Below are positions 4,466 through 5,166 of a stretch of DNA of 64,000 nt, piece after piece. The notes below the pieces were generated by a model. The model did no database searches, had not been told where the DNA came from, and saw nothing but the letters and a program-made list of their open reading frames with translations. Position 1 is the stretch's first letter, and each line of letters begins with the position of its first letter. Origin of the DNA: an uncultured Thermodesulfovibrio sp. (lineage in GTDB: Bacteria > Nitrospirota > Thermodesulfovibrionia > Thermodesulfovibrionales > UBA6898); the NCBI GenBank assembly GCA_964499365.1, contig CAZCKU010000014.1:27136-91135 (forward strand). The letters run 5' to 3'. The translations under genes were made by a program, and so were the position numbers.

Positions 4466-4543
4466 CGGGGCGTAGCGCAGTCTGGCTAGCGCACCTGCCT
4501 TGGGAGCAGGGGGTCGGAGGTTCGAATCCTCTCGCCCCGACCA
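4466..4543 (+). tRNA. tRNA-Pro (anticodon UGG)
   Basis: Hand-folded cloverleaf: acceptor CGGGGCG/CGCCCCG, D arm GCGC/GCGC, anticodon stem CCTGC/GCAGG with loop CTTGGGA, T arm GGAGG-TTCGAAT-CCTCT, encoded CCA. The C1-G72 pair is typical of bacterial tRNA-Pro. Confidence 0.95.
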
Positions 4544-4562
4544 GTTTTCCTCCCTCTTGTTA
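4520..4562 (+). repeat. left copy of direct repeat (tRNA-Pro T-arm/3' acceptor plus downstream bases); attL-like
   Basis: GTTCGAATCCTCTCGCCCCGACCAGTTTTCCTCCCTCTTGT recurs imperfectly at 5124-5166. Confidence 0.6.
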
Positions 4563-4630
4563 TTGACCTTCAATAGTCGGATAATGCACCCGTGCTTTAC
4601 TGGGAATCTCGTTGATGCAGAGGAGAAATC

Positions 4631-5035
4631 ATGAATAAATTATCCCTGGCATTGATCGGCTTGATCTGCCTCCTGTTTGTCGGAGTATCTCATGCCGATG
4701 CCATGCAGATATTTGTCAAAACAGTAACAGGCAAGACCATTACCCTGGACGTTGAGCCAAGTGATTCAATCGAGAACGTAAAGGCAAAGATCCAGGATAA
4801 AGAGGGAATACCCCCTGAACAGCAAACCTTACTGTTTGCCGGGAAAACACTTGAGGATGGTCGCACACTGTCAGATTACAATATACAGAAGGAATCCACG
4901 CTCCATCTTATTGTAAATGCTGTTGCTGCACCCCCCCAGAGCGTGCCTGCCCTGAATGAATGGGGGATGATTATATTTGTTCTGGTATCGGGTGCAGGGT
5001 CGGTTTATTATTTGAGAAGGCGAGAGATCTGTTAA
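4631..5035 (+). CDS. exported eukaryote-like ubiquitin with C-terminal IPTL/PEP-CTERM-type sorting tag (no diglycine tail)
   Basis: GAGGAG RBS 5 nt upstream. Signal peptide [24 protein letters not shown]. Then [71 protein letters not shown], identical to canonical ubiquitin at 62 of 71 positions. The tail [28 protein letters not shown] is motif + TM helix + Arg cluster. Confidence 0.9.
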
Positions 5036-5123
5036 AGAACACTTCATGACAAAATCAGTGAAGTGAAGGAAAACGACGTGTAAGTATTCCCTGGTTTTCA
5101 ACAGGTTGTTATTGCGGCAGACC

Positions 5124-5166
5124 GTTCGAATCCTCTCTCCCCGCCCGTTTTATCTCCCTTCTTCTC
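5124..5166 (+). repeat. right copy of tRNA-Pro 3'-end direct repeat; attR-like
   Basis: GTTCGAATCCTCTCTCCCCGCCCGTTTTATCTCCCTTCTTCT. It shares a perfect 14-nt core, GTTCGAATCCTCTC, and about 31 matches over ~38 hand-aligned positions with 4520-4562. Confidence 0.6.

Follow-up and report, generated by a model that had tools for sequence, protein, structure and literature searches.

The locus considered here raises the question of how a eukaryote-like ubiquitin gene came to stand between two copies of the 3′ end of a bacterial tRNA gene. The window, i.e., the whole stretch of DNA that was analysed, comprises 64,000 nucleotides of contig CAZCKU010000014.1 (positions 27,136 to 91,135 of the forward strand; GenBank assembly GCA_964499365.1) from an uncultured Thermodesulfovibrio sp. 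of the Nitrospirota. All coordinates below refer to this window unless another contig is named. In our comparisons the window is contig C14 of genome G000, and the comparison set consists of six other species of the same genus (G001 to G006). The tRNA gene in question is an intact tRNA-Pro(UGG) with an encoded CCA (4466–4543, plus strand; ARAGORN; Rfam RF00005, 66.3 bits). It is the only UGG isoacceptor for proline among the 47 tRNA genes of the genome (3.85 Mb in 30 contigs), and its 3′ end is the same in the six other genomes of the genus. A preliminary description of the locus, made from the sequence alone, had claimed that this 3′ end is directly repeated around the ubiquitin gene, and had interpreted the two copies as the left and right attachment sites (attL and attR) left by integration of a mobile element into the tRNA gene. 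The comparisons described here bear out the repeat and, with the recombining enzyme as the part that we infer, the scar. The islet is a very small, integrase-less case of the well-known class of tRNA-gene islands, and it probably arose by integrase-mediated integration into tRNA-Pro, followed by the loss of all but one cargo gene.

The two copies differ in their state of preservation. Copy 1, the identity block on the attL side (4520–4548, plus strand; repeat search and alignments), starts at G53 of the T-stem, covers the T-loop, the acceptor 3′ strand, the discriminator base and CCA, and ends with the GTTTT that follows. Copy 2, on the attR side (5124–5159, plus strand), consists of a displaced and decaying tRNA-Pro 3′ fragment (5124–5151) together with T/C-rich ancestral downstream sequence; it was delimited by repeat search, gapped alignment, its position in the empty-site genomes and comparison with a sister strain. 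In the repeat search, 4520–4555 and 5124–5159 agree at 30 of 36 ungapped positions and start 604 bp apart. When gaps are allowed, local alignment yields 35 matches over 41 columns, among them a perfect 14-nt core, GTTCGAATCCTCTC, which spans the T-loop. The 5′ edge of the similarity is sharp and falls at G53, with which the 5′ strand of the T-stem ends, and no likeness between the copies was seen in the alignments 5′ of this base. In the other direction, the similarity extends via the T-loop, the 3′ strands of the T-stem and acceptor, the discriminator, CCA and GTTTT into the T/C-rich stretch. The GTTTT after CCA is common to both copies, and the relatives lack it at that position. The approximately 12 nt of similarity most distant from the tRNA (CTCCCT..CTT) probably lie outside the att identity block; in G003, where the cassette occupies another locus, its own upstream region contains the homologue of this part of copy 1.

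The state of the site before the insertion can be read from the relatives. The preliminary description had proposed a search for empty sites, and three genomes (G003, G006 and G004) provide them: each carries a gene for an NYN-domain protein and tRNA-Pro, followed directly by sequence homologous to that which lies after copy 2 in the window. A block between the tRNA and the kinase gene, CATTGCTTTGG...GTTAATCTAAC (5179–5219, plus strand), is part of this ancestral flank, outside the insert, and is conserved, as is its spacing from the end of the tRNA, in G006, G003 and G004. In the multiple alignment, the distance to the block is about 54 nt from the start of the T-loop segment of G006, and 55 nt from the start of copy 2 here. 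It follows from this equal spacing that copy 2 sits exactly where the original tRNA 3′ end was, and that the 604 bp are an insertion. The preliminary description had named, as an outcome contrary to its interpretation, relatives that lack the gene and nevertheless carry both repeat copies. This is not so: each of the six relatives, none of which has the ubiquitin gene at this site, contains one copy of the 24-nt tRNA-Pro end, not two, with up to 5 mismatches allowed. In G002, G001 and G005, other, unrelated DNA, without an integrase, lies downstream of tRNA-Pro; this position is thus variable within the genus.

Two further details of the locus in the relatives may be recorded at this point. 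In G002, the interval from tRNA-Pro to the kinase gene (L037, G002:C123, 2178–7011) is filled by 4.8 kb of other signalling genes. Their products are three receiver proteins, a histidine kinase and a multihaem-like protein, and the interval contains neither an integrase nor a tRNA repeat. G006 lacks the PAS hybrid histidine kinase. Its match to window positions 5124–5272 joins directly to the match from 7243 onward (L036, G006:C13, 2827–3738), the kinase gene being deleted except for its first ~50 nt.

It should be considered whether copy 2 is a chance match, a member of a dispersed repeat family, a fragment of some other tRNA or an artefact of assembly. Exactly four copies of the 14-nt core are present in the 3.85 Mb of the genome; tRNA genes account for three of them (Pro-UGG, Gln-CUG and Arg-CCG), and the fourth is copy 2. 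As a genome-wide control, the last 45 nt of each of the 47 tRNAs, with 15 nt of flank, were aligned to the 60 kb downstream. At 21.5, the score of the tRNA-Pro pair was exceeded only by three true island repeats and one neighbouring paralogous tRNA; two further matches to neighbouring tRNAs scored 16.5 and 15.0, and matches other than island repeats or neighbouring tRNAs did not exceed 14.5. Elsewhere in its own genome, copy 2 matches tRNA genes only, and the insert has no further copies there. A dispersed family of the repetitive extragenic palindrome (REP) kind, the other contrary outcome that had been foreseen, is thus ruled out.

An origin from tRNA-Gln(CUG) has more in its favour, as the tRNA part of copy 2 is identical to this tRNA at 19 of 19 positions before it diverges and, over 24 nt, the copy in the window matches tRNA-Pro and tRNA-Gln equally well (21/24 each). 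The question is decided by an independent strain. An exact-protein look-up returned two Logan contigs, both with the junctions seen in the window. The contig from ERR3839025 matches the window at 100% identity over 3,522 nt; the other, from a different run (SRR31730582), represents a sister strain and is 98.97% identical over 1,360 nt, with the same layout. Copy 2 of the sister strain, GTTCGAATCCTCTCGCCCCGACCGGTTTT, is identical to the tRNA-Pro end plus GTTTT at 28 of 29 positions. Copy 2 thus derives from tRNA-Pro and has decayed further in the lineage of the window, and the original repeat was at least 29 nt long and near-perfect. The tRNA-Gln origin is rejected on this ground and on that of position, copy 2 being located where the tRNA-Pro end lies in the empty sites. 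The presence of both junctions in two independent assemblies likewise shows that the arrangement is no assembly artefact. The chance, dispersed-repeat, other-tRNA and artefact explanations are refuted by these findings taken together, and we assign them next to no probability.

The same comparison yielded two additional observations. The two strains differ at 14 places, and three of these are packed into 10 nt of copy 2: in positions 5138–5147, compared with L223, they are a T/G difference, a 1-nt indel and a C/G difference, with a fourth difference 15 nt further on, a density far above the surrounding rate. This clustering is not explained by simple neutral decay, and a multi-nucleotide event or gene conversion is possible. 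The Logan contigs break inside the shared tRNA, which fits the presence in the sample of several species sharing that tRNA and is uninformative with regard to excision.

The inserted DNA (4544–5123, plus strand; 580 bp) is missing from the orthologous site in G003, G006 and G004, according to BLAST and alignment against the relatives. The preliminary description had stated that the bracketed ~580 bp contain only the ubiquitin open reading frame (ORF) and are visibly AT-rich, and had suggested profiles of GC content and codon usage; both statements agree with the measurements. The GC content of the insert is 45.2%, compared with 56.8 ± 3.3% in 580-nt windows of its contig, which places it at the 0.5th percentile. 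The GC content of third codon positions is 0.48 for the ubiquitin gene and 0.66–0.74 for the flanking genes. The one credible ORF in the 580 bp, and hence the only gene of the islet, lies at 4631–5035 (plus strand). It encodes a protein of 134 aa with a signal peptide, a ubiquitin domain (Pfam ubiquitin, 2.9e-28) that lacks the Gly-Gly end, and an IPTL-CTERM-like anchor; this tail scores 16.7–17.1 bits, just below the curated cut-offs. Upstream of the gene, a consensus scan predicts promoter-like hexamers, TTGTTA-17-GATAAT (4557–4585, plus strand), which would be the cassette's own, and which the cassette of G003, at a different locus, has preserved. The ubiquitin ORF shows no difference in 405 nt between two strains that are ~1% different elsewhere, which suggests that the gene is under purifying selection.

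The remaining parts of the insert are short. The packing is tight, with 7 nt between the tRNA end and the start of the cassette homology and 88 nt after the stop codon. These 88 nt, the right arm of the insert (5036–5123, no strand assigned), include a hairpin at 5040–5065, and the arm has no homologue in 41 related genomes or elsewhere in its own genome. Its predicted fold is no better than that of shuffled sequences (z = −0.63). Copy 2 gives no sign of being a structured RNA either: its fold is no better than shuffles, and Rfam reports the tRNA alone. A transposon, an insertion sequence, a miniature inverted-repeat transposable element and a casposon were also considered and rejected. The repeat search found no terminal inverted repeats pairing the insert ends, the ORFs of the insert include no transposase or Cas1, and the duplication is at least 29 nt long, in contrast to target-site duplications of 2–15 bp. 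A 9-nt direct repeat, TTGTTATTG, close to both ends of the insert is at chance level.

The sorting tail of the protein has counterparts in other genes of the genome. Its DNA at 4953–4972 is a 20-nt exact match to another IPTL-CTERM-like gene (G000:C15:557–576), and 25 of 27 positions agree with an IPTL-CTERM-like gene on C17; 13 or more further ORFs have tails of a similar kind.

The insertion, the displaced tRNA-Pro fragment, the empty sites of the relatives and the foreign composition are thus matters of observation. So is the absence of an integrase, noted before for the islet, which the ORF list and a PF00589 search now show for the islet and for contig C14. That the insertion was nevertheless the work of an integrase, and that the element used to be larger, is what we infer, in part from the other islands of this genome. 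Nine integrase matches were found in the genome. Integrases directly adjoin tRNA-Glu(UUC), tRNA-Arg(CCU) and tRNA-Arg(ACG); another lies 5 kb from tRNA-Pro(GGG), where no repeat is detectable. The tRNA-Glu(UUC) island (C10, 68597–108700) is bounded by a perfect repeat of at least 59 nt, 40 kb apart, and that of tRNA-Arg(CCU) (C3, 236733–257150) by a perfect 45-nt repeat, 20.3 kb apart, the integrase adjoining the tRNA in both cases. The selenocysteine tRNA (tRNA-SeC) islet (C20, 1256–6038) has a perfect 26-nt repeat that runs from G52 to CCA, 4.66 kb apart, and a truncated integrase of 190 aa. At tRNA-Pro(UGG), finally, the repeat is imperfect, begins at G53, measured at least 29 nt originally and spans 604 bp, with no integrase. 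The simplest reading of these loci is a decay series within one genome, of which the tRNA-Pro islet, with its imperfect repeat, lack of an integrase and single cargo gene, is the last stage. The tRNA-Pro and tRNA-SeC islets resemble each other as small, decaying islands in which the same part of the tRNA is repeated, from G53 and G52, respectively, to CCA; this correspondence supports an integrase-mediated origin. They differ in that the tRNA-SeC islet retains a perfect repeat and part of an integrase; decay has gone one step further in the tRNA-Pro islet.

The course of events that we propose is as follows. A tyrosine integrase would have carried out strand exchange in or next to the T-loop of tRNA-Pro; sublocation classes of integration sites within tRNA genes were reportedly described by Williams in 2002. 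The element would have brought a new segment from T-loop to CCA, which kept the tRNA intact and is represented by copy 1 on the attL side, and the host's original segment would have been displaced 604 bp downstream, where it has presumably been decaying as copy 2 on the attR side. The integrase and all other genes of the element would subsequently have been lost, most likely by internal deletion. What remained would be a self-contained cargo unit that consists of a promoter-like site, a ribosome-binding site and the gene for a secreted, membrane-anchored ubiquitin-like protein. This cargo gene, whose product is predicted to be secreted and anchored, seems to have been kept by selection.

Several observations weigh against this origin. 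In addition to the lack of an integrase in the islet and on its contig, none of the nine integrases of the genome adjoins tRNA-Pro(UGG), and none is found next to this tRNA in any of the seven genomes of the genus; the search for tyrosine integrases targeting tRNA-Pro(UGG), which the preliminary description had recommended, was therefore fruitless. No parent element was found, the 88-nt right arm being without a homologue; the somewhat longer segment 5010–5123 has no match in the 41 related genomes or in IMG/VR. The protein itself does have relatives in IMG/VR, all of which are ubiquitins from giant viruses of eukaryotes and lack a bacterial signal peptide. No fragments of tRNA-Pro or tRNA-Leu surround the copies of the cassette in G003, so that the gene does not carry conserved att ends along with it. 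Moreover, the GTTTT shared by both copies beyond CCA, and lacking in the relatives, would also be present in both copies if the duplication had been derived from the host. On the other side, the cassette is found near tRNAs in G003 too, in tRNA-linked variable regions, and we count this in favour of integration.

The GTTTT leads to an alternative in which no site-specific recombinase took part. Homology-facilitated illegitimate recombination, or a repair or duplication event, would have used the tRNA as an anchor and a short T/C-rich microhomology at the other junction, and would have duplicated ~30–40 nt of host sequence. The shared GTTTT and the loose CTCCCT..CTT, the latter being in part the cassette's own upstream region in G003, could be such junction microhomology, and the failure to find either an integrase or a parent element is in keeping with it. 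What makes this route very unlikely, in our opinion, is the position of the joint. The duplication starts exactly at G53 and the T-loop, the site used by tRNA-targeting integrases and by the tRNA-SeC islet, and nothing would direct a joint formed by accident to this place. Joints made by illegitimate recombination are usually accompanied by deletion of target DNA, not by its duplication. In addition, the perfect repeat of the tRNA-Glu island extends 14 nt or more beyond CCA, so that identity outside the tRNA is nothing unusual in the att sites of this genome.

A second alternative retains the recombinase and dispenses with the larger ancestor. The islet would then be a cargo-only, att-bounded cassette, comparable to a cis-mobilizable element, that never encoded an integrase; one encoded elsewhere would have inserted it in trans from a small circular intermediate and could also remove it. 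Its very tight packing would suit such a cassette, as would the perfect 14-nt core that still covers the T-loop, and several tRNA-linked integrases of the genome could act in trans. No integrase specific for tRNA-Pro(UGG) was found, however. The same promoter-plus-gene unit is also present at two other tRNA-linked loci in G003, but the copies have neither conserved ends nor att-like flanks in common. The cassette in G003 is 82% identical at the nucleotide level over window positions 4551–5015 and lies 270 nt downstream of tRNA-Leu(CAG), and the synteny of G003 with the present genome stops exactly at the 3′ end of that tRNA.

As regards G003 itself, three ubiquitin-like copies were noted (L034, 4630–5046, minus strand; L035, 3908–4382, minus strand; G003:C74:12572–12883). 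The intact copy downstream of tRNA-Leu(CAG) adjoins a truncated HU/IHF-like gene. A pseudogene copy with stop codons is separated by 2 kb, which include a HigB/HigA-like pair, from a tRNA-Arg/His/Arg/Lys cluster upstream of it, and the third match is 38% identical and forms part of a 300-aa ORF.

Further evidence on trans-mobilisation comes from a survey of 80 GTDB loci that encode relatives of the protein across phyla, most of them with a signal peptide and varied C-terminal modules. At five of the 80, a same-strand tRNA ends 117–525 nt upstream, compared with ~0.3–0.5 expected from tRNA density: L050 (Phe), L063 (Asn), L092 (Ser), L094 (Asn) and L109 (Leu). The arrangement of L109 is seen again in the metagenome contig L128. 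In L109, from Brevundimonas, synteny with related genomes ends exactly at the 3′ end of tRNA-Leu(UAA) and resumes 844 nt further on, the gap being occupied by the ubiquitin gene alone. These loci speak for a mobile cassette. Against it, no other clear tRNA repeat was found to bracket the gene at the five loci. L050, L094 and L109 have no bracketing tRNA repeats, nor do the G003 loci. At L092, the tRNA fragment is inverted and comes from another tRNA. At L063, from Sediminihaliea, a tRNA-Asn-like fragment (24/27) stands right behind the ubiquitin gene, and half of it overlaps a dispersed REP-like repeat, which makes it ambiguous. It should also be noted that accessory genes in general gather near tRNA genes; for this reason, the unusual frequency of tRNAs near secreted-ubiquitin genes in several phyla is a lead, not a result. 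On balance, we regard a cassette inserted in trans as an unlikely origin of the islet. The broader proposition that signal-peptide ubiquitin genes with a C-terminal sorting anchor spread across distant phyla as cargo-only mini-cassettes at the 3′ side of tRNAs, moved in trans by resident tRNA-targeting integrases, with the tRNA-Pro islet as the one copy in which both att scars are legible, appears quite unlikely. A homologue search with the whole protein was swamped by eukaryotic polyubiquitins and added no genomic context.

The survey loci showed two other features. The REP-like family in the Sediminihaliea genome (G041) is ~65 nt long and dispersed, being present at L063 6784–6847 and in five other places, often just after terminators. 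A metagenome-assembled genome of Uliginosibacterium carries two secreted-ubiquitin genes in tandem (L077, 5506–5883 and 5971–6363).

Integration into tRNA-Pro with subsequent loss of all but the cargo places the islet among known systems. Islands that tyrosine integrases create in tRNA genes are marked by the regenerated target tRNA at one end and a displaced 3′ fragment of the tRNA at the other (Islander, PMC4383910). The tRNA-Pro islet agrees with such islands in both of these features, as well as in a repeat that starts in the T-arm, a foreign composition and empty sites in relatives. It differs from them in having no integrase gene and an already imperfect repeat, and in measuring only 604 bp with a single cargo gene, far under the size that such catalogues consider. 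Cis-mobilizable elements (CIMEs) are remnants of integrative elements, bounded by att sites and devoid of genes for recombination and transfer (ICEberg 2.0, PMC6323972; reviewed in PMC5704250). The islet shares with CIMEs the att-like direct repeats at a tRNA 3′ end and the restriction to cargo, without integrase or transfer genes. Unlike them, it is much smaller, and no cognate helper element or integrase using the same att site was found in the genome or the genus.

With respect to the cargo, the closest parallel is BfUbb of Bacteroides fragilis, a secreted, horizontally acquired ubiquitin of eukaryotic type. As in BfUbb, the protein encoded here resembles eukaryotic ubiquitin, has a signal peptide and lacks the Gly-Gly end, and its gene is low in GC relative to the host. 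It is distinguished from BfUbb by the C-terminal IPTL-CTERM-like anchor and by its occurrence in a Thermodesulfovibrio-like genome of the Nitrospirota.

The interest of the islet lies in its cargo, in a history that can be resolved to the base pair, and in the hint that ubiquitin genes ride tRNA hot spots across phyla. It offers a base-pair view of a eukaryote-like ubiquitin gene entering a Nitrospirota genome via a tRNA-Pro integration hot spot, and the acquisition can be dated to the time after this lineage split from its sequenced relatives. Single-gene relics of this kind, which can carry the most interesting cargo, would escape island finders that depend on an integrase or on a minimum size. 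The proximity of ubiquitin genes to tRNAs in several phyla could, moreover, explain how the gene family has moved between distant bacteria.

A last observation concerns the DNA upstream of the islet. Between the NYN gene and tRNA-Pro, a 43-aa ORF (4272–4403, plus strand) matches the C-terminal half of ParE/RelE toxins (Pfam PF05016, 8e-5) and corresponds to a 5′-truncated toxin remnant. DNA homologous to this remnant is present on other contigs in G002, G006 and G024.

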